DNA from: Armatimonadota bacterium
Lineage (GTDB): Bacteria > Armatimonadota > Hebobacteria > GCA-020354555 > CP070648
NCBI GenBank assembly: GCA_035527535.1
Contig: DATLAK010000171.1
Coordinates: 7,638-71,637, forward strand
Direction: 5' to 3'
DNA: 64,000 bases
Part shown: positions 7,289 to 64,000 of the stretch, in pieces
How positions within the stretch are numbered: the stretch's first letter is position 1
Layout: each line of letters opens with the position of its first letter
The notes under the pieces: generated by a model
Databases searched by the model: none
Seen by the model: only the letters and a program-made list of their open reading frames with translations
What the model was told of the DNA's origin: nothing
Translations under genes and position numbers: made by a program

Positions 7289-8148
7289 GGCCGAGACTCA
7301 GCATCCAAGCCCTCCTCCATCTCTTCCTCGCCCTGGGCGCGGTGAGCATGATCCTGCCCTTCTTGTGGATGCTCTCGACGTCGCTCAAACCGGAGTCGCA
7401 GATCTTCGCCTCCCCCACCTGGCTGCCCAAGGTTTGGCAATGGAGCAACTACTCCGCCGCGATGGCCGCCGCCCCCTTCGCCCGATACTTCGCCAACACC
7501 GTGCTCTACTCCACGCTCGTCACGACCTCGAACCTCCTCCTCTGCTCCCTCGCCGCCTACGCCTTCGCGCGCCTCAATTTTCGGGGAAAGAACCTGCTTT
7601 TCGTGCTCGTGCTCGCCACCATGATGATCCCCGGACAGGTGACCATGGTGCCGGTGTTCGTCATGCTCAAGCATTGGCCTCTCGCGGGCGGCAACCACCT
7701 CCTGGGCGCCGGCGGGCACGGCCTGCTGAACAGCTACACCGGCCTCGTGCTCCCGGGCGCGGTGGGCGCGTTCGGCATCTTCCTCCTGCGCCAGTTCTTC
7801 ATGACCCTCCCCCGCGAGCTCGAGGACGCCGCCCGCATAGACGGCTGCTCCGAGTTCGGCATCTACTGGCGCATCATCCTCCCCCTCTCCAAACCCGCCC
7901 TCGCGACGCTGGGCATCTTCACCTTCACCGCCGCCTGGAACGAGTTCCTCTGGCCCCTCCTCATCACCAGCAAGGACTCCATGAAAACCCTCCAGCTCGG
8001 CCTCCAGATCTTCCAGACCCAGTACACCACGCGCTGGGACCTCCTCATGGCCGGCACCGTCGTCGTCACCCTCCCCGTCCTCCTCCTCTTTCTCTTCGGC
8101 CAGAAGTACTTCACGCGGGGGATCGCGATGAGCGGGATGAAGGGGTAG
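7285..8148 (+). CDS. carbohydrate ABC transporter permease (MalG/UgpE-like)
   Basis: EAA motif EDAARIDGCSEFGIYWRIILPLSKP; ATG 7285 overlaps upstream TGA (ATGA); the longer ORF from 6532 is an out-of-frame overlap artefact. Confidence 0.8.
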   Translation: MRPRLSIQALLHLFLALGAVSMILPFLWMLSTSLKPESQIFASPTWLPKVWQWSNYSAAMAAAPFARYFANTVLYSTLVTTSNLLLCSLAAYAFARLNFRGKNLLFVLVLATMMIPGQVTMVPVFVMLKHWPLAGGNHLLGAGGHGLLNSYTGLVLPGAVGAFGIFLLRQFFMTLPRELEDAARIDGCSEFGIYWRIILPLSKPALATLGIFTFTAAWNEFLWPLLITSKDSMKTLQLGLQIFQTQYTTRWDLLMAGTVVVTLPVLLLFLFGQKYFTRGIAMSGMKG

Positions 8149-9465: not shown

Positions 9466-9526
9466 AGGTGATGGCCGCCCGGGAGGGGGTGCTCGTGGCG
9501 GCAGGTGGTTACGGAGGAAAGGGTGG

Positions 9527-12031
<2,505 letters not shown>

Positions 12032-12140
12032 GGGGGGTCGAACATACCGGGCGCACGCTTTCGCCCCCGGCGGTGCGCCGCGCGGGGGCGTTTCCTTTTC
12101 CCCGCCTTCCGCTCCGCGCGCCTAACCGGATCGCCAAACC

Positions 12141-13514
12141 ATGAGAGCCGGGGCCATATATGTGTGCCAGCAGTGCGGGGCCGAACACCTGCGCTGGATG
12201 GGCCGGTGCCGCGACTGCGGCGCCTGGAGCGCCCTGGTGGAGCAGCGGGTGGAGGCCCACGGCCGCGGCGCGGCCGCGCGATGGCCGCCGCTGGCGCCAG
12301 CGGCGCCGATGTGCATCTCCGACGTGGTCGTCGCCGCCACCGCGCGCCAGCCCACCGGCATCGGCGAGTTCGACCGCGTCCTGGGGGGCGGCCTGGTAGC
12401 GGGGGCGTTGGTGCTCATCGGCGGCGAACCGGGGATCGGCAAGTCCACGCTGGTGCTGCAGGCGGCTCGCTCCTTCACCGAGGCGCAGGGGCGGGCGCTG
12501 TACGTGTCCGGGGAGGAGTCGCCGGGGCAGATCCGGATGCGGGCGCAGCGCATCGGGGCGGTTGACGCCCGCCTGGTGGTGCTCGCGGAAACCAACATCG
12601 AGCACATCCTGGCGGCGGTGGAGCAGGTGTCGCCGGGGCTGGTGATCGTGGACTCGGTGCAGACGCTGCACGATCCGGCGCTGGAGAGCGCGCCGGGCAG
12701 TGTCAGCCAGGTGCGGGACTGCGCGGCGCTGCTGATGCGCGCGGGCAAGCAATCCTCGCGGCCCATCTTGCTGGTCGGCCATGTGACCAAGGAGGGGGCG
12801 ATCGCGGGGCCGCGCGTACTGGAGCACATGGTGGACGCGGTGCTCTACCTCGAAGGCGAGCGGCACCATGACTACCGGCTGCTGCGGGCGGTCAAGAATA
12901 GGTTCGGCCCCACCCATGAGCTGGGTGTGTTCCACATGCGCGAGGAGGGAATGGTGGAGGTGGCGAATCCGTCCGCGGCATTCCTGGATGAGCGGCGGGC
13001 GGAGGCACCCGGCTCGGCGGTGATTGCGAGCATGGAGGGGAGTCGTCCGCTGCTGGTGGAGGTGCAGGCGCTGGCGTCGCCGGCGCCGCCGTTTGGCGCG
13101 CCGCGGCGCAGCTCGACGGGCGTCGACCCACGGCGACTGGCCCTGGTGCTGGCGGTGCTGGAGAAGCGGGCGCGGCTGGCGGTGTCGACGCAGGATGTCT
13201 TCGCCAACATCGCCGGCGGGGTGCGGGTGGAGGAGCCGGCCGCTGATCTGGGCCTGGCGGTGGCCCTGGCGTCCAGCTTGAAGGATCGGCCGGTGTGCCC
13301 GGAGACGGTGTTTTTCGGCGAGGTCGGGCTGTCGGGGGAGATCCGCAGCGTCAACCGTTCGGAGGAGCGAATGCGAGAGGCGGCGCGTCTGGGCTTTCGC
13401 CGCTGCGTAGCGCCCGCAGGCGGCGTGTCGCGCGCCTTTGACGAGCTGGAGGTGGTAGCGGTGGCCGATGTCGGCGAGGCCTTCGCCGCCGGGCTGACCG
13501 CGGGCAGCTCGTGA
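12141..13514 (+). CDS. radA: DNA repair protein RadA/Sms
   Basis: N-terminal C4 zinc ribbon CQQCGAEHLRWMGRCRDCGAW, RecA-like Walker A GGEPGIGKST, KNRFG motif, Lon-protease-like C-terminal domain. Confidence 0.9.
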   Translation: MRAGAIYVCQQCGAEHLRWMGRCRDCGAWSALVEQRVEAHGRGAAARWPPLAPAAPMCISDVVVAATARQPTGIGEFDRVLGGGLVAGALVLIGGEPGIGKSTLVLQAARSFTEAQGRALYVSGEESPGQIRMRAQRIGAVDARLVVLAETNIEHILAAVEQVSPGLVIVDSVQTLHDPALESAPGSVSQVRDCAALLMRAGKQSSRPILLVGHVTKEGAIAGPRVLEHMVDAVLYLEGERHHDYRLLRAVKNRFGPTHELGVFHMREEGMVEVANPSAAFLDERRAEAPGSAVIASMEGSRPLLVEVQALASPAPPFGAPRRSSTGVDPRRLALVLAVLEKRARLAVSTQDVFANIAGGVRVEEPAADLGLAVALASSLKDRPVCPETVFFGEVGLSGEIRSVNRSEERMREAARLGFRRCVAPAGGVSRAFDELEVVAVADVGEAFAAGLTAGSS

Positions 13515-13542
13515 CTCCGGCGCAGAGAGGAGGTGAAGGACA

Positions 13543-14712
13543 ATGGCAACACGCGTGATGGGGTTCCTCTTCAGCTTGGCGTTCAGCCTGGTCTCGGCGG
13601 TCGTGTTCGGGGAGCTCGCCGATATCTATCTGGGGCTGTCCTTCATCAAGAACGCGGAGGTCGGCCAATACTTCGTGCTTTGGTATCGCATTGCGTTTGT
13701 CGTTCTTGGACTCCTCATCGGGTTCACGCTGGCCGGCGTCATCTTCCGCCAGATGGTAGGCCTCGCCTGCAACCTGCAGCGGTTCCCCGCCCCGGACAAG
13801 GTGGCGGGGGTGGTCGGCCTGATCATCGGTTTGGTGCTCACCGTGCTGCTGGGGCGGTTCGTGCTTATCATCCCGCGACTGGGGCCGTTTCTGGTGCTGC
13901 TGCTGGGGGTTGCGTGCATCTACCTCGGCGGCAGCATCGCCATGAGCATGAAGGAGGAGCTGTCGTTCTTCATGCCCAACCTCGTCGGCCGCGCCGGCGG
14001 CCGCGACGCCGGAGCGGCCGGCTCGCGCGCGAAGCTGCTGGATACCAACGTGATCATTGACGGTCGCATCGCCGACGTCTGCCGCACCGGGTTCCTCGAG
14101 GGCCCGATCCTGGTGCCGGACTTCGTGCTCGAGGAGCTGCACCTCATCGCCGACAGCGGGGACAGCCTCAAGCGCAACCGCGGTCGCCGGGGCCTCGACG
14201 TCCTCAACCAGATGCAGGACGAGTTGAACCTGTCGGTGGAGGTCTATGATCGCTACGACATCGTGTTCGGCGACAACGAAGGCGTGGACCTCAAGCTGGT
14301 AAAGCTCGCCAAGGCGACCAGCGCGGCCATCGTCACCAACGACTTCAACTTGAACAAGGTGGCCCAGCTCCAGGGCGTTGTCGTGCTCAATGTCAACGAG
14401 TTGGCCAATGCCGTCAAACCCGTGGTGCTGCCCGGGGAGGAGATGTCGGTCACCATCGTCAAGGAAGGCAAGGAGCTCAACCAGGGCGTGGCGTACCTCG
14501 AGGACGGCACCATGGTGGTAGTCGAGGACGGCAAGCGCCACATGGGAGAGACGGTGACGATCATCGTCACCAGCGTGCTGCAGACAGTCGCGGGCAAGAT
14601 GATCTTCGGCAACTTGAGGACCGACCCCACGGGGGAGGCGCGATCTGACAGAGACAGCCGGGCTAATAGCGGCAGCAGGCTCCGGAGAAAGACTCGGCTC
14701 GCGGCGGAGTAA
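13543..14712 (+). CDS. PIN/TRAM domain membrane protein (YacL-like)
   Basis: Four N-terminal TM helices, PIN domain (LLDTNVIIDGRIADV...), C-terminal TRAM-like GETVTIIVTSVLQTVAGKMIFGNL; the last ~30 codons are low-complexity read-through overlapping the ispD N-terminal region; conserved position between radA and ispD as in Firmicutes. Confidence 0.8.
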   Translation: MATRVMGFLFSLAFSLVSAVVFGELADIYLGLSFIKNAEVGQYFVLWYRIAFVVLGLLIGFTLAGVIFRQMVGLACNLQRFPAPDKVAGVVGLIIGLVLTVLLGRFVLIIPRLGPFLVLLLGVACIYLGGSIAMSMKEELSFFMPNLVGRAGGRDAGAAGSRAKLLDTNVIIDGRIADVCRTGFLEGPILVPDFVLEELHLIADSGDSLKRNRGRRGLDVLNQMQDELNLSVEVYDRYDIVFGDNEGVDLKLVKLAKATSAAIVTNDFNLNKVAQLQGVVVLNVNELANAVKPVVLPGEEMSVTIVKEGKELNQGVAYLEDGTMVVVEDGKRHMGETVTIIVTSVLQTVAGKMIFGNLRTDPTGEARSDRDSRANSGSRLRRKTRLAAE

Positions 14713-14740
14713 GGCGCTGACGCCGCTCGGCGGCCGCCCC

Positions 14741-15844
14741 ATGGTCAGCTACTGCCTTGATGCCTTCCGGGCGTCGAGGGTGGGCGAGATCGTGGTGGTC
14801 GCTCCGCCCGACGAGGTGGAGCCGTTCCGGCAGCTCATCGCGCACGGGCCGAGCGACCAGACCGAGAAGGTCGTCGCCGGGGGTGGCACGCGCCAGGAGT
14901 CGGTGATGAACGGCCTGCGCGAGGTGTCGGCAGGCGTGGAGTGCGTGCTGGTGCACGACGCGGCGCGACCCTTGGTGACGCCGGAGCTGATCGCGGCATG
15001 CGCCGCCGCCGCCCGCACCCACGGCGCGGCGGTGGCGGCTCTGCCGGTGAGCGACACGCTCAAGTACGCCGAGGGTGAGCTCATTCGCACGACGGTGGAT
15101 CGGCACGGGCTGTGGGCGGCGCAGACGCCGCAGGCGTTTCGCGTCGAGCTATTAAGGGAAGCCTACGCGCGGGCGCGGCAGGAGGGCGCGGCCGCCACCG
15201 ACGATGCGTCCGTGGTCGAGGCGATGGGCGCGCCGGTGCGATTGATCATGGGTTCGCCGCGGAATCTGAAGATCACATACCCGCAGGACCTCGCGCTGGC
15301 GGAGATGCTGCTGGCGGCGGGGACGGGGAGGCGCGAGTCGCGCTGCGGCGTGGGCTACGACGTGCACCGCCTGGTCGCAGGGCGGCGCCTGGTGTTGGGG
15401 GGCATCGAGTTCCCCGGGGGAGTGGGCCTGGCGGGGCACTCCGACGCCGACGTTCTCACGCACGCCGTCAGCGACGCGCTGTTGGGGGCGGCGGGGTTGG
15501 GCGATATCGGCCGCTGTTTCCCCGACGACGATCCGCGTTATGCGGGAGCGGACAGCGTGGAGCTGCTGCGGCAAGTGGCGGCGATGGCGGCGGCGGCCGG
15601 ATTCCGCGTCATCAACGTGGATGCGGTGGTGGTGGCGGAGCAGCCGCGCATCGCGGAGGCCGTGGGGCAAATGCAGCGGCGGCTGGCGCAGGCCCTGGGC
15701 GTCGCGCCCGAGCGCGTCAACATCAAGGGCAAGACCGCCGAAGGATTGGGGGCCATCGGCGCCGGCGCGGGCATCGCCAGCCATGCCGTATGCACGGTGG
15801 CGCCGGCTGCGAGCGGTGATGACTGCAGTTCCGAGGAGGGGTGA
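14741..15844 (+). CDS. ispDF: bifunctional 2-C-methyl-D-erythritol 4-phosphate cytidylyltransferase / 2-C-methyl-D-erythritol 2,4-cyclodiphosphate synthase (IspDF); true start probably upstream (non-canonical)
   Basis: IspD core (VVAGGGTRQESV, LVHDAARPL) then IspF (YDVHRLV...GHSDADVLTHAV...). Open in-frame back to 14618 encoding the IspD P-loop AGLIAAAGSGERLGS..KAL, but no ATG/GTG/TTG there (only CTG 14645, ATA 14666). Confidence 0.85.
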   Translation: MVSYCLDAFRASRVGEIVVVAPPDEVEPFRQLIAHGPSDQTEKVVAGGGTRQESVMNGLREVSAGVECVLVHDAARPLVTPELIAACAAAARTHGAAVAALPVSDTLKYAEGELIRTTVDRHGLWAAQTPQAFRVELLREAYARARQEGAAATDDASVVEAMGAPVRLIMGSPRNLKITYPQDLALAEMLLAAGTGRRESRCGVGYDVHRLVAGRRLVLGGIEFPGGVGLAGHSDADVLTHAVSDALLGAAGLGDIGRCFPDDDPRYAGADSVELLRQVAAMAAAAGFRVINVDAVVVAEQPRIAEAVGQMQRRLAQALGVAPERVNIKGKTAEGLGAIGAGAGIASHAVCTVAPAASGDDCSSEEG

Positions 15845-16404
15845 TGGACATAACGTTCACCGGCAAGCAATTCGAGGTCACGGACGCGCTCAGGCGCTAC
15901 ACGGAGCGCAAGCTGAGCAAGTACGAGAAGCAGTTGCGCAAGCTGACGTCGGTGCATGTCGTGCAGAGCACCGAGCGCAACTGGCACAACGTTGACCTGA
16001 CCGTCACCGCCGACGGCGCGGTGTTTCGCGGCGAGGGCAGGTCCGACAACATGTACACGTCGATTGACCTCGCGGTCACCCGGCTCGAGACGCAGATCAA
16101 GCACCGCAAGGGCAAGCTTATCGACCGCGCCCACGGCAGAAGCCCGGAGGCGCGCGCGCCCGAGGCGGCGGTCGAGGGCGCAGTCGAGGCTGACGCCGAG
16201 GAGGATCTCGACGCCGAGGAGGCGCCGCGTCGGGTGCGAACCAAGCGCGTGCAGTTGACGCCGATGGCGGTGGAGGAGGCGATTGACGAAATGGAGATGC
16301 TGGAGCAGCAGTTCCTGGTTTTCGTCAACGGCGACAGCGGCCGGGTCAACGTCGTCTACCGGCGCGATGACGGGGGCTACGGGCTGGTTGACCCCGACTA
16401 CTGA
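15841..16404 (+). CDS. hpf: ribosome hibernation-promoting factor, long form (HPF/RaiA)
   Basis: N-terminal S30AE domain ITFTGKQFEVTDALRRYTERKLSKYEK...VDLTV, acidic linker, C-terminal dimerisation domain VRTKRVQLTPMAVEEAIDEMEMLEQQFLVFVN; start overlaps ispDF stop. Confidence 0.88.
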   Translation: MMDITFTGKQFEVTDALRRYTERKLSKYEKQLRKLTSVHVVQSTERNWHNVDLTVTADGAVFRGEGRSDNMYTSIDLAVTRLETQIKHRKGKLIDRAHGRSPEARAPEAAVEGAVEADAEEDLDAEEAPRRVRTKRVQLTPMAVEEAIDEMEMLEQQFLVFVNGDSGRVNVVYRRDDGGYGLVDPDY

Positions 16405-54553: not shown

Positions 54554-54750
54554 CGTTGGCTATCCAAAGTCGTTCCTGTCGCCGATCCGTCGTCTAGTAT
54601 TCCGCGCGTGCTGTCGCCCATCCTGCCGCATGTATGTCGCCCGTAAGCCATGCGCCGTTCGGCTTTCGTTATTGCAGCGTCGGCCGCCATGATGAAGGAA
54701 CTGCGCAGTTTGTGTGGTTCACGAAGCGGCAGAGCCGGTCAGACTGGCGA

Positions 54751-55787
54751 TTAGCCCCACCGCCGTCTCTTTGGCGCGGGTGTCGGAGTGGAGATAGTTG
54801 GCGGTAGTTTCGAGGTCGGCGTGGCCGAGGAGTTCTTGGACGGTGCGGACGTCCACGCCGTTGCGCACGAGGTGGGTGGCGAAGGTGTGGCGGAGTGGCT
54901 AGGCCGCCAGGCCGCCATGGCGGTCGCGGCGCGACTTAGCCACTTATGAACCGTGATGCGCTGGCCGGCCAAGCCTGCCCGCTCCACCAGTCGGCGCACG
55001 ATGCGATGGATGCGAGCGCCGTTTATCGGCTGGCCCCACATCTGGCTGATGAAGAGGTGGCCGCTCTGCGTCGGCCCGCGCCAAGCCACGCTTGTCCGCC
55101 GCCAGGTGAGATATTCCATGATTGCCTCGACCACCTCAGGTGTTAACGGCACCACCCGCTCCTTGTTACCTTTGCCGCGCACGCGCAGTTGGCAATACTC
55201 CAGGTCACCCTGATCCAGCACGATGCCGGCAGCCTCGCTGCGGCGCAAGCCGGTTGAAAGCAAGAGCAGGACCAATAGCCTGCGGTCAGGAGTCTGTGCC
55301 GCCGCCAGCAGTTGGTGCACCTGCTCGGCGGACAGCACGGTGGGCAGATTCCTCGCCACCTTGGGTAGAGGCAGTCTGCGGGCAGGGTTGCCCTGGCAAT
55401 GGCCCATGTGGCTCTGCCATCCCGTTGGGAGGGCAACGCCATCTCAGAGGGATCCTGGAGGAAGGAGAAGAACGACGAGAGGCAGCCATACTTGCGGCGG
55501 ATCGTGAGCGGCTTCATACCGGTTAGCTTCAGCCCCCAGGCGACCACCTGCGGGCGGGTGATCTCCGCGGGCGCGGGCACGCGGCCTCCCTGCTCAAGCA
55601 GGAACTCCTGGAACTCGCGCAGGTCAATGCGATAGGCCCCGACCGTCCACGGCGAGTAGTGGCGGTAGCCCTGCAGGTACGACAGAAACTTCGAAACCGC
55701 GGCGTCGAAGGCGCTGCCCTCCTCGGCCCCTGTATTCTGCTCAGATGCGTCCGGAAAGTCCGGATTCTCCGCCGCCTGCGTGACCAT
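54751..55787 (-). pseudogene. tyrosine site-specific recombinase/integrase (XerC/XerD-like), disrupted by two frameshifts and an in-frame TAG
   Basis: N-terminal SAM-like domain (FLSYLQGYRHYSPWTVGAYRIDLREFQEFL...ITRPQVVAWG), core (LSTGLRRSEAAGIVL...LRVRGKGNKERVVPL), then catalytic [39 protein letters not shown] only in a shifted frame after TAG. Confidence 0.7.
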
Positions 55788-56029
55788 GCGTGACCTCTCC
55801 TGTAACCCACGTTCTGTCGCCTACATAGGTCACTCGAAGCCAGCCAGAAGTCAAGCGAGATTCGAGGCAATCCTTGCGCGCGGTGGCCCACAGGAAAGAG
55901 CCTTGCGAAGGAAGGCGATGTGGCCGCTGCTTGGAGCCGATTGGGGATAGCTCGGGGGGCAAGCCACGTGGGAATCGCGCGGGCGCCGGCAGGGGCCTTT
56001 TCCGGCGATCATGTATTGTCTATGGCCAC

Positions 56030-57916
56030 TCAAACGCCATCCGAGGAGTCGATGCCCAGTTGGCGGTCAACCTCCGTGACCGGGTTGCAGCCCTTGTCGA
56101 GGCGGATTGGGAACCCGGTGGAAGGAAGGACGGCGGAGTTTAGATGGATCGTTAGTCGGGGTTGCCCCGAGTCTCCGGCGCTCGGTTCAAGACGGAGCAG
56201 GGACGCCTTGTCCGATAGCAATCTGAGCGCGAGCTGGTTAAGTTGCTCGGGGGTCGTGTCCTTGCATAGGACCGCGAGGGCCGGCGCGGACACGGCCAAA
56301 AGAAGTTCACGTAGGGCTTCCCTCTCATCGATCGACTGGACGCGCGCTGCAAATCTAAGTGCGCGGAGAGCATCGGCGTACTGCGCCTCAAGAAGCGCAC
56401 TATCTGCCTGCGCAAATGTCGTTGCCTCAACGAGCGCTTCGCCAGGCTTCCCTGCGGCGGTTCGGGCATCCACGGTTCCATAGTAGCACTCGATGGTGCC
56501 CCTTCGAAAAACAAAGCACCCGGCAGTCTCAAGGAAATCAAGTAAGGCGGTGACCCTGTCGTATATCGCGACCCACTGTACGGTGTTGGACATTGAAGCT
56601 CGTTCGGCGGCTGACATGCTCATGAGGGCCGCGAGAGCTGCGCGCCTCTTCTGCGCCACCTCGTTCTTAGTGGGGTCTCGAAGCTGCCAGTACGGGTGCT
56701 GCTCGGCGTGGGGTGCTATGTCGTGCCATTGAGCATCGGCCAAGTGGCAGAAATCACCGTGCACTGATGCCGCGAACGCGTGCGCATCGGAATAGCCCTT
56801 GGCATTGGCGGCTTTCGCAACAGAGGAGTCGCTTGCGTAGACGCTGACAAGGTCGAGGCCATCGGCGATGGCATCGACATCTGCTAGGACGATGGGTGAC
56901 TTGCCGATGAGCTTGAGTAACTTTGCTACGATGGGCATTCGCCCTTTGCCCATCACAGGTACAAGTTGGGCTCCTGTCGGCGCGAGGTAGAGGCTGAGTC
57001 GGTTGTCCAACTCTGTGCAGATGAAGGCATCACTTGGGCCTTCGACAAGCAGGGGTCGCGCACAGAAGAACGCCAACTTGTGTGCGTGACTCAAGTGCGG
57101 GAGAAGAGCGCGTAGTTGGGCGTTTTTCAGCTCGGGCCTTTCGGGACTCACTTGGATGGGGGGACGATCTGGATCGCAGCAGAAGACTATGCTTGCCACG
57201 TCTTCGGGGCGCCTGATATCAATCATCTCGGTGGAGTGTGTCGCGATGAACACGAGCTTCTTGCCAGGGGTACTCGGATCGCCTGCAACCTCACGAATCT
57301 CGCGAAGCAAGAACGCTTGAAGTTGGGGGTGGAGGGAGACTTCCGGCTCGTCTATGAGGAGCGCGGCGACCTCGTCATCATAAAGGGCCGCCAAGAGCAC
57401 CACCAGCTGCAGCAGTCCGCTCGCCTCTCGCGCCACTGAGTAGGGCGGATGGGACGAGTCCAGCCTTACGAATCTCACCCTCAGCCTGCCTTCGTCCCAG
57501 TCGAGAAGAACGTCACGATTGAAGAGCCTACGGAGTCGCTCCGCGATTTTGATCTGCAGGTCAGCTCGGAAGCTGAGCGTATGAAAGTCCCCCGTCACGG
57601 CCTCACTGAGATGCCGTCTATCGCGCAACTTCCTCCCGCCGAAAGCTGCCTCATCGTAGTTCAGTGAATCTCCTCTGCTCCCGTCCCAATCCGAGCGGTA
57701 TTGCTCGACGGGCGCGGAACGGCCGGCCGACAAGAAATGGACTTTGCCTTGCGCGACAAGCGGACGGACCGCCGACTTAAGTGCCCGAAGGACTTGAGTC
57801 TTCCCCGAGCCATTGGGGCCGACAAGCGTGGTGAGGCCCCCATAGACAGTGATGCTCGAAGTAGCGGCCCCAGGCACCTCCCTTATCTCGCACTTCAGTT
57901 CAAATGGAAAGTTCAC
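56030..57916 (-). CDS. OLD-family (overcoming lysogenization defect) ATP-dependent endonuclease: N-terminal ABC/AAA_21-type ATPase + C-terminal Toprim domain
   Basis: Walker A GPNGSGKTQ, Walker B/D-loop LLIDEPEVSLHPQLQ, H-loop FIATHST; Toprim motifs LVEGPSD and ~40 aa later LADVDAIADG; 628 aa, similar size to P2 Old / Gabija GajA. Confidence 0.75.
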   Translation of the reverse strand: MNFPFELKCEIREVPGAATSSITVYGGLTTLVGPNGSGKTQVLRALKSAVRPLVAQGKVHFLSAGRSAPVEQYRSDWDGSRGDSLNYDEAAFGGRKLRDRRHLSEAVTGDFHTLSFRADLQIKIAERLRRLFNRDVLLDWDEGRLRVRFVRLDSSHPPYSVAREASGLLQLVVLLAALYDDEVAALLIDEPEVSLHPQLQAFLLREIREVAGDPSTPGKKLVFIATHSTEMIDIRRPEDVASIVFCCDPDRPPIQVSPERPELKNAQLRALLPHLSHAHKLAFFCARPLLVEGPSDAFICTELDNRLSLYLAPTGAQLVPVMGKGRMPIVAKLLKLIGKSPIVLADVDAIADGLDLVSVYASDSSVAKAANAKGYSDAHAFAASVHGDFCHLADAQWHDIAPHAEQHPYWQLRDPTKNEVAQKRRAALAALMSMSAAERASMSNTVQWVAIYDRVTALLDFLETAGCFVFRRGTIECYYGTVDARTAAGKPGEALVEATTFAQADSALLEAQYADALRALRFAARVQSIDEREALRELLLAVSAPALAVLCKDTTPEQLNQLALRLLSDKASLLRLEPSAGDSGQPRLTIHLNSAVLPSTGFPIRLDKGCNPVTEVDRQLGIDSSDGV

Positions 57917-58120
57917 GGTGTCAGTGCCTCCTGGTGACCGACAGACTCAGGGGCGCGCGATCCGGCCGCTTAGGGCGATACGGGCACTTGACGGCTTGTT
58001 GCCGCCCCTGAGCCATTGTAGGTTGAGGCTCCGCTGCTGTCAACGCGAACAGGCCCTTCGGACCGTCGATCACGTGATTCGCTGTGCGCGACGATGGTCG
58101 GAGCAAGCCGGTCGAGGAAT

Positions 58121-58169
58121 GGGCCTGTAATGCGGCAACTGTCGCGTGCCGGGAAAGTGATGAGAACGG
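58121..58169. repeat. ~50-bp motif copy A, ~200 nt upstream of the OLD-family gene
   Basis: GGGCCTGTAATGCGGCAACTGTCGCGTGCCGGGAAAGTGATGAGAACGG; 26/28 identical over the first 28 nt to copy B and ~75% over the rest. Confidence 0.6.
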
Positions 58170-58193
58170 TTCCGCGTCCGGTTTGAGTTCTGC

Positions 58194-58985
58194 CTACGGG
58201 TCAATCGGCCGCCAACTGGTGGAGCGAACCTCTTCGATCTTCTCGATCTCAGAGCGAGAGATGGGACGCTGCGCTCGGACGTTGAACTCGCGCTGCTCGG
58301 GAGGGAGAACATGCTGAATCGCCTGCGGTGTGCGTGAAAGCCCCTCGCGCTCGACGGCTGCCACGACCCTGCCCATGAAGTAGTCAAGGGATCCCAGCGG
58401 CAGGGCTCCCTCGTTCACCTCAAACGCGGGTGACGTGCGTCGCACCCAAATGACGACCTTGGTGCACACCAGGTCGCCGCTCGATACCCACTCGCTCACT
58501 CGCTCCACCAGCGCCCAGCCGGCGGCCGTCATTCCCGCCCGCAGGATGGGATCGTCTTTGCGCTCCGGGAGGTGATCCGTGATGTACTTGAGATTCTGCT
58601 TGAGCTGGCTGCCGCGGTAGTTGTGTGCATATCCCAGTGCACTGTGGTGAATTGAAGCAAAACCTATGCCGGGGCTGTCGAGATCGCGTTTCGACCAATC
58701 GAGGATGTCTTTCAGATCGAAGGAGAAGGAGCTATAGTCTTCGTGGACTGTGAAACGGAATCCGCGAGACACCTGTGCCTGCAGGATCTCAAGCAGGTGG
58801 CACAACTCTGGACGGATAGGCCGGAAGGGATCGGCTTGAGGGTCCAGCGGGTCGGAGAGGTCCTCAAGGCACATGCCGCGGTACATATACCGCGACGCCA
58901 CGGCCTCCTGCCAGATCCGCTCTGCCGCCTCAATGAATTCGCGTTCCGCGCTCATTGTATTGTTCCATCGCCCTTTAGTGACCAA
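58194..58985 (-). CDS. hypothetical protein (263 aa), putative partner of the OLD-family nuclease
   Basis: Co-directional ORF 277 bp upstream of the OLD gene, similar reduced G+C; no recognisable motif (no RT YxDD, no helicase motifs); alternative start at Met11. Confidence 0.5.
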   Translation of the reverse strand: MVTKGRWNNTMSAEREFIEAAERIWQEAVASRYMYRGMCLEDLSDPLDPQADPFRPIRPELCHLLEILQAQVSRGFRFTVHEDYSSFSFDLKDILDWSKRDLDSPGIGFASIHHSALGYAHNYRGSQLKQNLKYITDHLPERKDDPILRAGMTAAGWALVERVSEWVSSGDLVCTKVVIWVRRTSPAFEVNEGALPLGSLDYFMGRVVAAVEREGLSRTPQAIQHVLPPEQREFNVRAQRPISRSEIEKIEEVRSTSWRPIDP

Positions 58986-59303
58986 GTGACCAGGAGACTA
59001 TACTCGTTTCGCCCGGCTGCTATCAAGGCTTCTCGTGGTGCGGGGCGTAATGTCGAGCCTGTTGAAATGTCCCGTAGGTCACTTCCCAATAGGAGAGGAT
59101 TGAGGCGGGGGAAGACAGCTGGTGCGGGCCTTGTGCAATTCATGGCAACAGCGCGTGAGCGAAATCCGCCGTATGGTTTCCGATTCGTCGTCCATAGGCC
59201 GTTTCACCCCGACTCTTGGTAGCCGCCGCTGGTCAGTCGAATTGGTCAAGGACTCCAGCGGAGTTCTGGGCGGAATCTTCGGACTGCAGAATGGCCGAAA
59301 AGC

Positions 59304-59354
59304 GGGCCTGTAATTCGGCAACTGTCGGGTGTTGTGCGGAATGACGACAAACGG
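59304..59354. repeat. ~50-bp motif copy B, ~320 nt upstream of the 263-aa gene; partial third copy at 59511-59525
   Basis: GGGCCTGTAATTCGGCAACTGTCGGGTGTTGTGCGGAATGACGACAAACGG; partial GGGCCTGTAAGCCGG at 59511. Confidence 0.6.
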
Positions 59355-59591
59355 AGCGGCGGATTCGGGCGGAAGGATGCATCTCGGAATTCACAGCCGG
59401 GGGCGGCTGTGCCACATGATAATGCGTGGCGGCCGAGCCCACTTCGCTGAAGCTACGAGGGCCAAGGGCGGCTGTGTCAGCGGGAGGACAGAAAGAGGAG
59501 AGCGAGGAGCGGGCCTGTAAGCCGGAGTCCGCAGGGCAGGCCGGGCACTTCTCGCCCCCCAAAGCACCGACGCTCCAGGCCAAGGCCAGAC

Positions 59592-59624
59592 CAGGGTAAA
59601 ACCAGGGTAAAACCAAGGTAAAAC
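59592..59624. repeat. iteron-like tandem direct repeats (3 x 11 bp) in AT-richer non-coding region
   Basis: CAGGGTAAAAC CAGGGTAAAAC CAAGGTAAAAC followed by CGTACACTTTTGGCCGATTATTCC; nearby palindromes CACAGCCG-GGGG-CGGCTGTG (~59388) and GTGCCAAATGGCAC (~59752). Confidence 0.6.
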
Positions 59625-59946
59625 CGTACACTTTTGGCCGATTATTCCGGCGGCGCACGTTTGACAGGACCCATGGCGGGCAGCTGCACATGATGAACCA
59701 CAGCGACGCGCACCTGCCCTGGGGCCTGAGGCTCAGCCCGTCCAATCGGAAAGTGCCAAATGGCACATAGGCTGCCAGGCAAACCCAGGGGGGACACGAC
59801 CACCAGCGCGGCCAGCTGCGGCTCGGCTCGGGTGGCGAATGGCATCAACGCGAGCAATGGCAGCCACGCATGAGGCCGCGGCCTAAGCCACTCCTTCAGA
59901 CATCCGCACCAGGCGTGTGCCCGCCCGCCCCGCGGTTGCCGCGCGG

Positions 59947-60324
59947 TCAGGGCCGCAGAACCTTGAGCTCCAGGTCCTGGACGAGCCGGTAATGCTTGCG
60001 GTTTGCGGTGCACAGGGGCAGGCCCTGCTCGACGGCAGTGGCGGCCACCAACGCGTCGCCGGCGCTCATGCCGGATCGGAGACTGTATTCCTCCATGTAG
60101 ACCAGCGCACGATGGCCGATGTTCTCGGTCAGGGGCAGCACCGCGAAGGCGAAGTCGGCGAGGAAGCCCTTGATCGCTTTCACCTCCTGCTTGCTGCGCG
60201 CGCCTTGCACCAGCTCCATGTGCGTCATCACCGACAGCGCGCGCTCGCGCGCCAGCTCAACCATCCGGGCCGCCCCCTCATGGCCCCGAAACACCCATAT
60301 CAGCACATCGGTGTCAAACACCAT
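59947..60324 (-). CDS. vapC: type II toxin VapC (PIN-domain ribonuclease)
   Basis: MVFDTDVLIWVF... (first acidic residue), ...DALVAATAVEQGLPLCTANRKHY PIN core; 125 aa; the longer ORF-track call is an upstream extension. Confidence 0.8.
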   Translation of the reverse strand: MVFDTDVLIWVFRGHEGAARMVELARERALSVMTHMELVQGARSKQEVKAIKGFLADFAFAVLPLTENIGHRALVYMEEYSLRSGMSAGDALVAATAVEQGLPLCTANRKHYRLVQDLELKVLRP

Positions 60325-60565
60325 GGGATCGCACCTTGCGCAGGCCGCGCACCACCTGCTCGACATCCTGCAGGTCCTTGCGGTCCTGCCACATGCCGAA
60401 AGCTGAGTGCTCGGTGACGCGCACCTGCGCGCGCCTCGACTGCCGCCGCGGATAGATGACGCCCTTCTCCTTGCCCCGGTAGAGTAAGGTGACCGGTTGA
60501 TTCTGCTCGAGGGCGCGCAGGACCTCACCCATGCGCCGCCGCAGGTCCAGCACCGATGCCTTCAT
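60314..60565 (-). CDS. type II antitoxin, Phd/YefM family (partner of VapC)
   Basis: MKASVLDLRRRMGEVLRALEQNQPVTLLYRGKEKGVIY... typical Phd/YefM N-terminus; overlaps vapC start by 11 nt; start among Met37/40/42 uncertain. Confidence 0.7.
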   Translation of the reverse strand: MKASVLDLRRRMGEVLRALEQNQPVTLLYRGKEKGVIYPRRQSRRAQVRVTEHSAFGMWQDRKDLQDVEQVVRGLRKVRSHGV

Positions 60566-60774
60566 CCACATCACCTCCATCCCAAGTGTACAGATGAAGT
60601 GTACACTGCGCTGGCTGCCGAAGTCAAGTGCGGCTGCCAGCCCGAGGTCGCGCCCGGCGCCGCCGCTGGGGCGGCCAATCTCGCCCATCTGCGTCGCGGC
60701 GGCGCTTCGCCCTTCTGGATTCGGGGCGCCCTACCGGTGGACCACGACGAGGACTCCGCGCCCAGGCGCCGGAT

Positions 60775-62343
60775 CTAATCATCAAGCCATCGAATCCGAG
60801 GTTCTGGCGGCCGTGGCTCCAGGCACACATAGTTGGCCAGGGCGAGCGCCATCACCAGGTCATCATGGGCTCCTGACGGCGCTCCCAGACTTCCATCATC
60901 CAGGTGCTGATAGGCCCGCAGCTCACTGATGGTCGCTTCGCACGAGAGGACTAGACTGTGCTCCCGCAGCGACTTGTCCAACCGGTCAATGAGCAGGACC
61001 TTGGATGCCTGATTGGTCAGGAATCCCGCCTGGGCTTCGGTACCCCGCCGGTGGTCCGTCCACACGTTGGCGCGCAGATACTCGAGCTCCAGCAGCACCG
61101 CGTGTCCGTGGTTGTTGCGCTCCACCACCAGCTCCGCCCGGTGGTAGCGCTGGGAGAGCGTGTAGAGCTTGGCCGCGAAGACATCCGGAGGCCACTGCCC
61201 GCGTATGCGCGCCATCACACGCATGGGAACCCCTGCCTCCTCGGGGCGGCGCACCACCACCGCGGCACTGGGATCGCTCTCGGAGAGGCCTTCCGCCGGG
61301 TCGGCGCCTATGACGTAGCTCGCATCACCCACCGGCTCCTCCCAGATCGCCTCATGCTCGTCCCCTGGCAGGGGTGGCCGGCTCTCCAGCCACCCGATGG
61401 CCTCCTCGCCAAATGCCGGCCGCCCCGAGCGCAGGAAGCAGCGCGCCGGGTCTTCCGGGTATTCCTGGTCGAACCTCTCGCCCAGGTCGAAGCGCTTGGC
61501 CCGGCGCCATTGGATCTGGGCCTCATCCAGGCCATGGTCGCTGATTAGGGCAAGCTCGTCCTCGGTCAGGCTTGGCGGATCGAGGATGCTTGGGAGGCGA
61601 TAGGTCGGGTCCTCCCACCAGGGGAAGAAGTGGCGCTTGAAGCGCGGCAGGTTGTGATCGCCCGCCGCATGCTTCTGCCAGAAGTCCCAGGCGTAATTCT
61701 GGCCGTGGGGAGTGGTCTCGATGACCACGCGTCCTCCCGCGGGCACCGCCTCGAGAATGGAGGCCAGGGTCTCTTCGGGATTGGGCCAGAAGGCGAACTC
61801 GCTGGCATGAACGTTATCGACGGTTTGCGCGCGGCCGAAAGTCACCGAGCCGGCGGTGCCGACGATGAACTGCGAGTCTGTCTCAGACCACCACAGCTCC
61901 CGGCGGTTGCTGCGCCGGGTGGAAAGGCGTGCGCGCTCCGATTCGGGCAGCCTGCGCTCAAACAACTGCACCATCTGGAAGATCCTCTCGGTGGACTCCA
62001 GGTCATGGGCGATGACCACCGTGCGTCGGTTGGGGGTCAACCGGGTATCGTGGTAGAAGATGGCCTCGACCAGGGTCGAGACCCCCACCTGGCGCGGCTT
62101 GAGGATGTAGTCCCGCCCGCTCAGCTCCCGCTCAAGCTTGCGTTGGATCGGGTTCAACCTCAGCGGAATCACTCGGTTCTGCTTGTCCCGAATCTGCAGC
62201 AGCGCCTCTATCCACCGCACTCGAGTCAATTGGTGGGGATACTGGCAGGCTATCCGGCGCGCCACCTCCTGCCATTCCTTCGGTGTCAGCGGCGGCTTGG
62301 GCAAGGGCATAGGCGATGCCTGCGCAAATGCGTTGCTCGTCAT
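60775..62343 (-). CDS. phage terminase large subunit (ATPase + nuclease domains)
   Basis: Terminase_6-type ATPase region (ILKPRQVGVSTLVEA Walker-A-like, VVIAHDLESTERI), C-terminal RNaseH-like nuclease with acidic residues; 522 aa; start may be Met12 (62310). Confidence 0.7.
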   Translation of the reverse strand: MTSNAFAQASPMPLPKPPLTPKEWQEVARRIACQYPHQLTRVRWIEALLQIRDKQNRVIPLRLNPIQRKLERELSGRDYILKPRQVGVSTLVEAIFYHDTRLTPNRRTVVIAHDLESTERIFQMVQLFERRLPESERARLSTRRSNRRELWWSETDSQFIVGTAGSVTFGRAQTVDNVHASEFAFWPNPEETLASILEAVPAGGRVVIETTPHGQNYAWDFWQKHAAGDHNLPRFKRHFFPWWEDPTYRLPSILDPPSLTEDELALISDHGLDEAQIQWRRAKRFDLGERFDQEYPEDPARCFLRSGRPAFGEEAIGWLESRPPLPGDEHEAIWEEPVGDASYVIGADPAEGLSESDPSAAVVVRRPEEAGVPMRVMARIRGQWPPDVFAAKLYTLSQRYHRAELVVERNNHGHAVLLELEYLRANVWTDHRRGTEAQAGFLTNQASKVLLIDRLDKSLREHSLVLSCEATISELRAYQHLDDGSLGAPSGAHDDLVMALALANYVCLEPRPPEPRIRWLDD

Positions 62344-62845
62344 AATCGTCTCCTGTTCGTGTTCTCTCCTCGGTCACCACGGTCGGCTCTCCCCGGGCGG
62401 TTCTCTCCACGTCCACGCCCACCTTGAAGAGGTTGGTCACCTCGGTGGGGCGCAGCTTCGCCGCCAGCACCAGCTGGCCGGTTTGCGGGTCCGGCTTCAC
62501 CCACTCGGACATGGCTCCCTTGGCCAGGCGCTGCATGTCGGCGCCGTCTCGGGCTTGCCGCTCCGCCATCTCGCGGATGGCTTCCAGTTGGGCCTGGCGG
62601 CGCGCCCGGTCTTGCTCATCATCCCAGGCGGCCGCCCGGGATTGCCAGTGCCAGCGCTGGCACGCTTCCTCCAGCGCCGATCGCGACCAGCCTTCTTCCC
62701 CGGCATGCAGCCGGCGCAGCTTCACCAGCGACCGGCCGGGTCCCAAATCCCGGTACGCGCAGAACTTGCCGTAGACTTTGCTCGATTCTCCCGGCATACG
62801 CTCCCACAGGTGATCGGGCTCCTCGTGGACTTCAATCTCAGTCAT
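62132..62845 (-). CDS. hypothetical protein (237 aa), possible terminase small subunit/DNA-binding protein; 3' third overlaps terminase start
   Basis: N-terminal region with KVYGKFCAYRDLGPGRSLVKL (HTH-like), acidic low-complexity tail; overlap of ~180-210 nt with downstream gene is unusual. Confidence 0.35.
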   Translation of the reverse strand: MTEIEVHEEPDHLWERMPGESSKVYGKFCAYRDLGPGRSLVKLRRLHAGEEGWSRSALEEACQRWHWQSRAAAWDDEQDRARRQAQLEAIREMAERQARDGADMQRLAKGAMSEWVKPDPQTGQLVLAAKLRPTEVTNLFKVGVDVERTARGEPTVVTEERTRTGDDYDEQRICAGIAYALAQAAADTEGMAGGGAPDSLPVSPPIDSSAVDRGAAADSGQAEPSDSAEVEPDPTQA

Positions 62846-64000
62846 GATTCACACCCCCGGGCATGTTCGCCCGTAAACTCTTCCCAGCGCCGCAAGATGA
62901 CGTCGCAATATCGCGGCTCGAGGTCGATGCCATAACAGATGCGGCCGCACCGCTGCGCGGCGATGATGGCGGTGCCGGAGCCGAGGAAGGGGTCGATCAC
63001 CAGTTGCCCCGGGGTGGTGGCGTTGACGATGGCGCGCTCGATCAACGCCAGCGGCTTCATCGTGGGGTGCAGCTCATTGCGGGTCGGCTTGTCGTGCTGC
63101 CAGAGAGTTGATTCGTTGGTGGGGCCGTGCCAGCGCGGGGCCTGGCCTGCCTTGTGGGCATAGAACAGAGGTTCATACCAGTGTTTGTACTGAGCGAACA
63201 GAGCGCCCGCACCGTTGTTCTTGGCCCACACGATGAGATTTCTCTCTTGCCAGCCGGTGTCGGAAAGGCAAGTCAGGACATCCCTCAGGTGCGCCGAGGC
63301 GAACCATAGGTATAAAGGTGAGGCCGCGTCGCTGTAGCGGTGGGCAAGCGACAGGCTTGCGGTTAACAAGTCTCGATAGGCGTCGGGCGTGAGGTCATCC
63401 CAGTAGGCATCTGATGGGCCGTCAACCCCGCGGCGCGCCCTGGCGATGCGCTCTTCCTGAGCGGCGCGGCCACCGCAGTAGGAGACGGCATATGGTGGGT
63501 CGGTGACCACCGCATGGGCGAGCCTGCCGCTCATCAGCCGCTCCCACGCTTGGCCATCTGTCGCATCTCCGCAGACCAATCGGTGGGGCCCGAGCTGCCA
63601 AGCTTCGCCGGGCTGAACGCGGGTGGGGCCGGTGGCCTCCTCGGCCTGCGCCATCGCCTCCTCTGCGTCAAATCTCTCCTCTTGGTCGCCGAAGAGTAGC
63701 TGGCGCGCCTGGCCGAAGATCTCACCGATCTCCTCCTGCCCGAATCCGGTGAGATCGAGGTCCGCGTTCGCCAACTGCAGCTCCTCAAGTACTGCCGAGA
63801 GCTTGGGGATATCCCAATCGCCGGTAATCTTGTTGAGGGCTAGGTTGAGGGTGCGCTCGTCCGCAGGTGCGAGATCGACCACCACGACATCGGTTTCCTC
63901 GATCCCCTGGGCCTGCAATACCTTGAGGCGCTGATGCCCGCCCACGACGTTACCGCTTCTGCGGTTCCACACGATCGGCTCGACCAGCCCGAAGCGGGTG
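62842..64000 (-). CDS. ParB-like nuclease domain fused to N6-adenine/N4-cytosine DNA methyltransferase (partial; N-terminus beyond window end)
   Basis: ParB/Srx motif ...GLVEPIVWNRRSGNVVGGHQRLKVL; MTase motif IV VVTDPPYAV and motif I IDPFLGSGTAI; frame stays open to nt 64000. Confidence 0.75.
   Translation of the reverse strand, partial: TRFGLVEPIVWNRRSGNVVGGHQRLKVLQAQGIEETDVVVVDLAPADERTLNLALNKITGDWDIPKLSAVLEELQLANADLDLTGFGQEEIGEIFGQARQLLFGDQEERFDAEEAMAQAEEATGPTRVQPGEAWQLGPHRLVCGDATDGQAWERLMSGRLAHAVVTDPPYAVSYCGGRAAQEERIARARRGVDGPSDAYWDDLTPDAYRDLLTASLSLAHRYSDAASPLYLWFASAHLRDVLTCLSDTGWQERNLIVWAKNNGAGALFAQYKHWYEPLFYAHKAGQAPRWHGPTNESTLWQHDKPTRNELHPTMKPLALIERAIVNATTPGQLVIDPFLGSGTAIIAAQRCGRICYGIDLEPRYCDVILRRWEEFTGEHARGCES

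Follow-up and report, generated by a model that had tools for sequence, protein, structure and literature searches.

What is a motif of some 50 bp doing upstream of each of two neighbouring genes? The question is raised by a 64,000-nucleotide stretch of DNA from an Armatimonadota bacterium (contig DATLAK010000171.1, forward strand positions 7,638 to 71,637), which was analysed at its full length and is called the window below. The two genes, both on the - strand, encode an OLD-family ATPase-TOPRIM nuclease and a protein of 253 amino acids (aa). The initial annotation had treated them as one OLD locus, and had proposed that the shared motif could be a regulator site or promoter module, a duplicated 5' untranslated region (5'-UTR), or an attachment-site (att)-like repeat at a cassette boundary. 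The last of these suggestions is the one that fits the results best. We consider it likely that the motif is an att repeat derived from the end of rnpB, the RNase P RNA gene, that such repeats lie at the module junctions of recombinase-bearing elements, and that the OLD gene and the 253-aa gene are stacked cargo.

The repeats and the 3' end of rnpB

The motif upstream of both genes is real: two copies, A (58106-58172) and B (59293-59345), were recovered by a repeat search and by a pattern match. In the window, the repeat search pairs 58110-58148 with 59293-59331 (82% identity across 39 nt) and returns a weaker third member at 59500-59538. The cores of A and B have 27 of 29 positions in common. 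The pattern GGGCCTGTAATNCGGCAACTGTCG, with 23 specified bases, matches the 64-kb window at 58121 and 59304 only, both on the + strand, and has no match in 100 shuffles. A gapped, weaker similarity between A and B runs about 25-50 nt past the core, to about 58172 and 59380, so that a length of "~50 bp" was a fair description. The spacings first given were also correct: 205 nt separate the motif from the GTG of the OLD gene (57916), and 319 nt from a TTG (58985), which the open reading frame (ORF) finder had taken as the start of a 263-aa protein. The ATG at 58955 was taken here as the likelier start of this gene, hence 253 aa and a distance of 349 nt from copy B. Copy A lies 21 nt past the stop of the 253-aa gene, and is as much downstream of that gene as it is upstream of the OLD gene.

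The truncated third copy at 59511 (copy C) is genuine and not a chance decamer, since its GCGAGGAGCGGGCCTGTAAGCCGGA block is unchanged in 11 of 11 distinct loci, that is, in the window and ten metagenome loci. A search for further copies within the 64 kb found only clustered ones. A fourth direct copy, D, reads CCTGTAACCCACGTTCTGTCG at 55799-55819, just upstream of the start of a tyrosine recombinase gene. The four copies are on one strand, all inside 3.7 kb.

The related loci were gathered in two ways. A scan of 185,579 species-representative genomes gave two motif matches, in unrelated phyla, which is the chance level for 19 specified bases, and a viral contig collection had no motif match. 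A metagenome scan returned ten stretches. Six of them (L011, L012, L014, L016, L017, L018) are real, with long homology around B and with C at a fixed distance; in the other four (L013, L015, L019, L020), homology is confined to the pattern. The sequence of L016 is that of the window itself, while L011 and L012 stand for a single sequence. A search for homologues of the recombinase added six distinct loci: L021, L022, L023 (the same as L024), L025, L026 and L027 (the same as L028).

In these loci, B and C are two blocks within one larger conserved module, a non-coding stretch of about 330 nt that holds D, B and C and lies directly upstream of tandem genes for Xer-like recombinases (two in most loci, three in L018). 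The module is found in all 11 loci. D lies over the ribosome-binding site of the recombinase gene, B follows about 100 nt on, and C lies about 140-200 nt past B. B is more strongly conserved than its flanks. The extra copy A is found in the window only.

The origin of the repeats is revealed by the sequence on the right side of C, where five loci have in common a long conserved stretch with the hallmarks of RNase P. The Rfam model RF00010 (RNaseP_bact_a) finds complete genes in them (L018, L021, L022, L025 and L026; 232-268 bits, model positions 1-367). In those five loci, rnpB ends in ...GACAGAAUCCGGCUUACAGGCCCGCUCCUCGC, which is the reverse complement of block C, and rnpB, the module and the recombinase genes all point the same way. 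In the window, C agrees with the last 26 nt of rnpB at every position, and the sequence diverges beyond them. The other window copies match this 26-mer at 18 (D), 19 (A) and 21 (B) positions, whereas C matches it exactly in the locus alignments. A scan of the window with the 26-mer scored the four copies at 18, 19, 21 and 22 matches out of 26; the sites expected by chance in the whole window number 1.0 at a score of at least 18, 0.15 at a score of at least 19 and 0.007 at a score of at least 21. The alignments show C to correspond to the true 3' end of rnpB, A, B and D being diverged direct copies of the rnpB terminus. Copies of this kind usually mark the attachment sites of elements which integrate into the 3' end of a stable-RNA gene, and the repeats are therefore of the att type.

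Two arrangements of C are seen. In the five loci with a complete rnpB, C is followed by the body of this gene, which is the attL form. In the window, L012, L014, L017, L023 and L027, C is followed by other element DNA, which is an attP-like or tandem-junction form. An Rfam scan of the window's repeat region gave nothing at E <= 1, the fragments of rnpB being too short for it; it took the related loci to bring out where the repeats come from.

The cargo slot and its surroundings

A profile made from three cargo-free loci was used to place every piece of the module (nhmmer). Six loci (L014, L017, L022, L025, L026, L027) have an uninterrupted module, without cargo between the leader of the recombinase genes and B. 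The five others carry 2.4-5.4 kb of differing cargo: the OLD and 253-aa genes in the window, QatABCD, a 1474-aa STAND-like protein, and two sets to which no identity was assigned. In L012, the pieces cover profile positions 4-120 and 112-314, with 3.9 kb of cargo between them. In L021 they cover 4-106 and 98-319, with 5.4 kb that include a complete QatABCD (E 1e-32 to 1e-143), and in L023 they cover 4-86 and 108-307, with 4.7 kb that encode the STAND-like protein. Thus, an insertion point at profile 86-120 / 98-112 is common to L012, L021, L023 and the OLD unit of the window. In L018 (12-110 and 51-319) there is a second boundary, at profile 51-54, which this locus has in common with the window, with unrelated cargo. 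The comparison shows the stretch from leader to B to be a recurrent insertion point for foreign modules, several of them anti-phage.

The window combines both boundaries (Table 1). The OLD unit divides a copy of the site into two parts, leader and D (profile 13-98) on one side and copy A (profile 111-177) on the other. After the 253-aa unit comes a second copy of the site, from profile position 54 onward (a second leader, B, spacer and C; 59230-59541), which nhmmer places on profile 54-309 with E = 5.2e-46. The 253-aa unit is therefore bracketed by the B-type copies A and B, 1183 bp apart, and is flanked by two copies of profile 54-177 (about 125 nt), the left one being split by the OLD unit. 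It is in this respect that the att-like boundary repeats of the initial annotation hold: they derive from the 3' end of rnpB, they lie beside a tyrosine recombinase gene, and they bracket the 253-aa unit.

Table 1. Coordinates of the repeat copies, units and genes around the cargo slot of the window.
Feature	Positions	Strand	Remarks
Xer-like tyrosine recombinase gene, frameshifted	54751-55787	-	Overlapping ORFs 55143-55787 and 54751-55407
Recombinase-proximal part of the module, with leader	55785-55871	-	Profile 13-98; nhmmer E = 4.9e-14; also pairwise alignment to L017
Copy D	55794-55819	-	+ strand reads CCTCTCCTGTAACCCACGTTCTGTCG; overlaps ribosome-binding site of the recombinase gene; 18/26; same place in 11/11 loci; first noticed in L022
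OLD unit (cargo)	55872-58105	-	Inserted at profile ~98/111
OLD-family ATPase-TOPRIM nuclease gene	56030-57916	-	Pfam AAA_21, AAA_15, OLD-like_TOPRIM; PADLOC GajA, AriA and Old models
Copy A	58106-58172	-	B-type, profile 111-177: rnpB-like core and flanking hairpin region; nhmmer E = 1.4e-7; 19/26
253-aa unit (second cargo)	58173-59229	-	Gene 58194-58955; promoter-like site 59026->58997
Second leader copy and copy B	59230-59345	-	Leader 59230-59290 (profile 54-110), then B-type rnpB-like site 59293-59345; B 21/26
Variable spacer between B and C	59346-59495		AT-rich -10-like box in hairpin GCCACATGATAATGCGTGGC, kept with sequence changes in all loci
Copy C	59496-59537	-	Last 26 nt of rnpB exactly (AGCGAGGAGCGGGCCTGTAAGCCGGA), then element DNA, not rnpB body
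Arm-like non-coding region	59541-59946		Conserved with L027 (alignment)

Copy A is 75% identical to the window's own B and 78% identical to the B of L012, and the two leader copies of the window are strongly diverged, barely alignable to each other. A is therefore not a recent local duplicate of B, and its divergence agrees with an import from a different lineage of elements. At 55992-56020, immediately after the OLD stop, a candidate for a fifth, degenerate copy scores no better than shuffles.

The two cargo genes do not form a pair outside the window, contrary to the premise of a two-gene OLD locus: they are unlinked everywhere else examined. The contigs which carry homologues of the 253-aa protein (43-70% identity) have unrelated neighbours and lack OLD. 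For the OLD protein, more than 1500 homologues (45-59% identity) were found across many phyla, and in the two contexts that were read (49-50% identity) the gene stands alone among unrelated neighbours. Each gene has a sigma-70-like promoter match closer to its start than the motif copy, at 58043->58015 for OLD (11/12) and at 59026->58997 for the 253-aa gene (10/12). The OLD and 253-aa genes are therefore single-gene modules that were acquired separately, and each has a promoter-like site of its own. The idea of a regulatory motif of the OLD system gives way to a history, in which two unrelated cargo genes were stacked at a recombination hotspot.

The 253-aa protein has no match in the Pfam, NCBIfam or PADLOC models. 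Its family is very small (16 homologue clusters in 5.8 billion proteins), and the exact protein of the window is found in an Armatimonadota metagenome-assembled genome. In L001, a copy of 70% identity adjoins a DDE transposase gene.

The recombinases are simple Xer-like enzymes which lack an arm-binding domain. The intact ones of the related loci score 205-229 bits with the XerC and XerD models, whose cut-offs are 335 and 330, 109-118 bits with TIGR02249 (cut-off 265) and 80-87 bits with NF011946 (cut-off 435). The three of L018 are close paralogues of 323-356 aa, each with one SAM-like domain and a catalytic domain. In the window the gene is broken: Pfam Phage_int_SAM_1 falls on one ORF and Phage_integrase on the other, and four independent assemblies have the same split. 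The gene is thus a pseudogene. By blastn, its 3' end (54719-54895) has 88-89% identity to that of the second paralogue in the related loci; the figure for the first paralogue, which the rest of the gene resembles, is 73-77%. These identities point to a deletion by which the tandem pair was fused. As the recombinase of this genome is frameshifted and chimeric, the repeats would no longer act, and the array is probably frozen. The leader of the recombinase gene carries a -35-like CTTGACT on the - strand.

On the - strand, the order of genes from left to right is the split recombinase gene, OLD, the 253-aa gene and then about 1 kb without a credible gene; farther right are a PIN/antitoxin pair, a weak terminase-like gene, a gene for a 237-aa protein and a ParB-N6-methylase gene. 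The G+C content is about 60% in the repeat region, compared to about 69% in the first 50 kb of the window. The arm-like region just outside C contains three tandem 11-nt repeats CCAGGGTAAAA at 59580-59623 (repeat search; L027 has four units) and a palindrome GTGCCAAATGGCAC at 59753-59766 which is kept in L027. The repeats and the palindrome are candidate arm-type binding sites of an element that carries the ParB-methylase and terminase-like genes.

A recurrent gene set lies beside the module: a ParB_N-N6/N4 methylase, the 237-aa protein and a protein of 465-522 aa with weak terminase-like matches. It is found at 60775-63972 of the window (and on into L005 and L016), at 5097-8434 of L027 and at 1-1245 of L023. 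In the window, a PIN toxin and a Phd-YefM-like antitoxin (59947-60688) separate the terminase-like gene from the arm-like region. L027 has no toxin-antitoxin pair there, the arm being directly followed by the terminase-like gene, so that the pair of the window looks like another inserted module. In L021, GIY-YIG, PglZ and SNF2-helicase genes (BREX- or DISARM-like) lie at 9477-16352, downstream of the recombinase pair; defence genes are therefore present on both sides of the recombinases there. In metagenome 3300031566, the assembly breaks at 59274-59280 (end of L008, start of L016), inside the duplicated leader beside B, and the two contigs overlap by 7 nt. This break may hint at population heterogeneity in cargo content.

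Arrival of the cargo and alternative explanations

The comparison of loci shows a family of elements in Armatimonadota-like bacteria known from metagenomes, with two or three tandem genes for Xer-like tyrosine recombinases. An integrated element reads, in order, rnpB, C, a spacer of about 140 nt, B, a leader of about 100 nt, D with the ribosome-binding site, recombinase 1 and recombinase 2. In the scheme proposed here, the 253-aa unit would have arrived as a small circle carrying a site of about 125 nt (leader, B-type core and hairpin), and this circle would have recombined with a resident B-type site, the recombinase pair acting in trans. Such an event would follow the logic by which islands accrete in tandem at tRNA or tmRNA genes. 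For insertions of the OLD type, either the crossover was too short to leave a visible duplication, or the insertion spread by recombination in the conserved flanks. We infer from these arrangements that the insertion of cargo was site-specific.

Several observations weigh against this scheme. No rnpB was found in the window, in L005 or in L016 (which reaches 4.3 kb past the right end), nor a complete one on the window's contig; the arrangement in the window is therefore attP-like or a tandem junction rather than a classic attL. The motif has no dyad symmetry, unlike the usual core sites of tyrosine recombinases. At their recombinase-proximal edge, the OLD, Qat, STAND and L012 cargoes have no detectable copy that resembles the rnpB end, and these insertions, which have no recognisable bracketing repeats, may have arrived by another route. 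No excision product or circular form was seen among the loci, nor any whole-contig locus with a terminal overlap. B and D may be relics, passed on by descent, and not active sites. Lastly, the comparison loci come from few related metagenome studies and make up a small, phylogenetically narrow sample. A second att copy to the left of the recombinase genes was looked for in each locus and not found within up to 9 kb.

A serious alternative also derives the repeats from att sites, and departs from this scheme only in the route by which the 253-aa unit came in. B and D would be accessory recombinase-binding sites, core-like direct repeats in the P' arm of the element's attP. Related elements would swap cargo by homologous or illegitimate recombination in their conserved flanks, and A would be the scar of an unequal cross-over between two elements that differ in cargo, instead of resulting from a site-specific cassette insertion. 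Such sites can be likened to DR1 and DR2 of the integron attI1. The absence of an arm-binding domain from the recombinases speaks for it, as do the sequences themselves: D, B and C are direct copies of CCTGTAA-N8-CTGTCG which share the outer bases and differ in the inner 8 nt, B is conserved above its flanks, and A resembles the B of another lineage. Moreover, four of the cargoes abut B and have no second copy of the core at their other edge. Against it, kilobases of cargo would lie between the core and the supposed arm sites, two loci whose cargo is unrelated have the same boundary at profile 51-54, and the two copies of profile 54-177 that flank the 253-aa unit are what an event between two sites predicts. 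We regard accessory sites with swapped cargo as possible, though doubtful, as the explanation of the unit.

The proposal of att repeats at module junctions can also be carried further, to an integron-like platform for gene capture that would be independent of IntI and attC. The tandem Xer-like recombinases would act on the rnpB-derived sites C, B and D, three paralogous core sites with common outer arms (CCTGTAA / CTGTCG) and differing 8-nt centres, with C serving for the integration of the whole element into rnpB, and B-type sites for the insertion and excision of small defence cassettes, which lack an integrase, carry their own promoter and can be stacked (the 1.18-kb 253-aa unit would be one). 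We hold this stronger version to be unlikely. Should B-type sites prove to be active, cassettes would be captured here by a new system, which has the RNase P RNA gene as its anchor.

The motif could also belong to a structured RNA. This would be a UTR element that was duplicated, as had been suggested for the copies upstream of the two genes, or else a small RNA whose gene lies in the B-C module. The spacer between B and C gives some grounds for it. An AT-rich -10-like box (59405-59440) lies there, amid DNA of 65-70% G+C, in a hairpin whose stem varies between loci (alignments of 5 and 11 loci); it reads GATAAT in the window and TATAAT, TATAGT or TATATG at the same position elsewhere. This box could be an outward promoter or a binding site. 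In addition, the hairpin of C keeps its pairing on the + strand through changes from G-C to G-U, and copy A, on its + strand, has a fold somewhat better than that of shuffles (z = -2.5). Against an RNA stand the location of A and B, upstream of the promoter matches, and their folds in the sense of the genes, which are no better than shuffles (z of +0.46 and +0.67). Rfam has no match to offer at E <= 1, compensatory changes are almost absent from the RNAalifold results for both strands, and the spacers differ by indels of 1-60 nt. As for the hairpin of C, it is the 3' strand of P1/P4 of RNase P RNA. We consider a structured RNA very improbable.

A common operator or promoter, by which the OLD and 253-aa genes would be co-regulated as one defence system, was suggested by the position of the copies: the two genes have the same orientation, and the copies precede their starts by 205 nt and 319-349 nt. 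Co-regulation is barely credible now. The motif is absent from all the homologue loci that were fetched (three for OLD, four for the 253-aa protein), and the check proposed at the outset, to look for the motif at OLD-family loci of other genomes, thus came out negative. It is present in ten other loci, which lack the pair of genes and have recombinase genes; it derives from rnpB; each gene has a nearer promoter match, and the two genes are unlinked elsewhere. Readings of the motif as a LexA box, a sigma-54 or a sigma-70 site gave nothing convincing by eye, and the promoter matches lie elsewhere. Small ORFs that end at the TAA of the copies (57849-58130, 59122-59313, 59329-59520) were set aside, the indels between loci not being multiples of three.

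A generic dispersed repeat of the host (REP- or MITE-like) has nothing in its favour except the multiplicity of copies within 3.7 kb and deserves next to no credence, considering that the 64 kb contain only clustered copies, that the 185,579 genomes gave two chance-level matches, and that the real metagenome matches all lie in the same module context.

Comparison with known systems

The closest parallel is with the genomic islands and prophages that integrate at the 3' ends of tRNA or tmRNA genes and form tandem arrays separated by repeats of gene fragments; they are reportedly treated, for example, by K.P. Williams in 2002. As in these islands, the tyrosine recombinase gene lies beside a small stable-RNA gene, the att core is the 3' end of that gene, which is regenerated on integration, and displaced or decayed 3' fragments form direct repeats between successive modules. 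The differences are that the target here is rnpB, that two or three tandem simple Xer-like paralogues take the place of their single integrase of the lambda or P4 type with an arm-binding domain, and that there are extra pseudo-sites, B and D, in the recombinase-proximal arm, the cargo entering beside B and not at the live gene end. As read from the DNA, the window has the rnpB-end repeat and the neighbouring recombinase gene expected of such islands; the intact target gene is absent from it and present in five related loci.

The 253-aa unit also resembles the cis-mobilizable elements (CIMEs) which accompany integrative and conjugative elements such as ICESt1 and ICESt3, in that small modules without a recombinase, with direct repeats of the att type, lie beside an element that encodes one. 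Unlike CIMEs, each module here consists of one gene of the defence type, 1-2 kb in length; there are no conjugation genes, and mobility is putative.

The likeness to an integron (intI, attI, attC) lies in a recombinase gene with an adjoining preferred insertion point which gathers foreign genes in a promoter-proximal position, including defence genes, and in serial insertion, which produces single-gene units bounded by repeats. In contrast to integrons, the units here carry their own promoter-like sites, and the recombinase gene is co-oriented with the cargo and downstream of it. The attC sites are imperfect inverted repeats with R''/L''-L'/R' boxes at the 3' ends of cassettes. The recombinases fail the integron integrase models TIGR02249 and NF011946, and a direct reading of A and B found no RYYYAAC...GTTRRRY pair or dyad; an integron was therefore rejected.

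The systems that exploit Xer recombination, such as the IMEX integrated at dif and the pdif modules of Acinetobacter plasmids, also combine pairs of Xer-like recombinases with integrase-less modules bounded by copies of a short site. The repeats here are direct, not inverted, and the recombinase genes belong to the element. A dif-like site is a 28-bp dyad. Here, the recombinases fall under the XerC/XerD equivalog cut-offs, the half-sites are direct (CCTGTAA...CTGTCG), and no dyad of a XerC arm, a 6-bp spacer and a XerD arm is seen, so that a Xer/dif site was not retained.

Recombinase in trio (RIT) elements were also considered, and flanking inverted repeats are reportedly to be expected in them, after Ricker et al. 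in 2013. None were found here, most loci have two recombinase genes, and the trio of L018 consists of uniform paralogues. The three proteins of RIT elements, on the other hand, are distinct: RitA has two core-binding domains and RitC an extra C-terminal helix, and RitB completes the trio (PMC8138268).

The two-gene OLD defence systems (Gabija GajAB, PARIS AriAB, retron Eco8) were rejected as well. In such systems, the OLD ATPase-TOPRIM gene adjoins a conserved partner, which is the UvrD-like GajB, AriB, or a reverse transcriptase with a non-coding RNA. The 253-aa neighbour matches no partner model, and the genes are unlinked elsewhere.

With respect to its content, the slot is reminiscent of the hotspots of P2-like prophages and P4-like satellites and of GMT islands, where interchangeable anti-phage systems (here OLD, Qat and STAND-like) occupy a fixed place between conserved parts of the element. 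The backbone, the rnpB target and the repeat-bounded sub-modules differ from those hotspots. The slot may be usable as a bait for new defence genes in a poorly studied phylum, the 253-aa protein being the first.

The literature searched, whose coverage was incomplete, yielded no description of elements that use rnpB as attachment site, which gives slight support to their novelty. The work brings to light a family of elements with this attachment site, with tandem simple recombinases and with a fixed slot for anti-phage cargo (OLD, Qat, STAND-like). Pipolins are reported to provide a comparable reservoir of defence genes on an integrative element (PMC11551731). The feature is of an ordinary kind, att repeats at module junctions, in what is apparently an undescribed variant.

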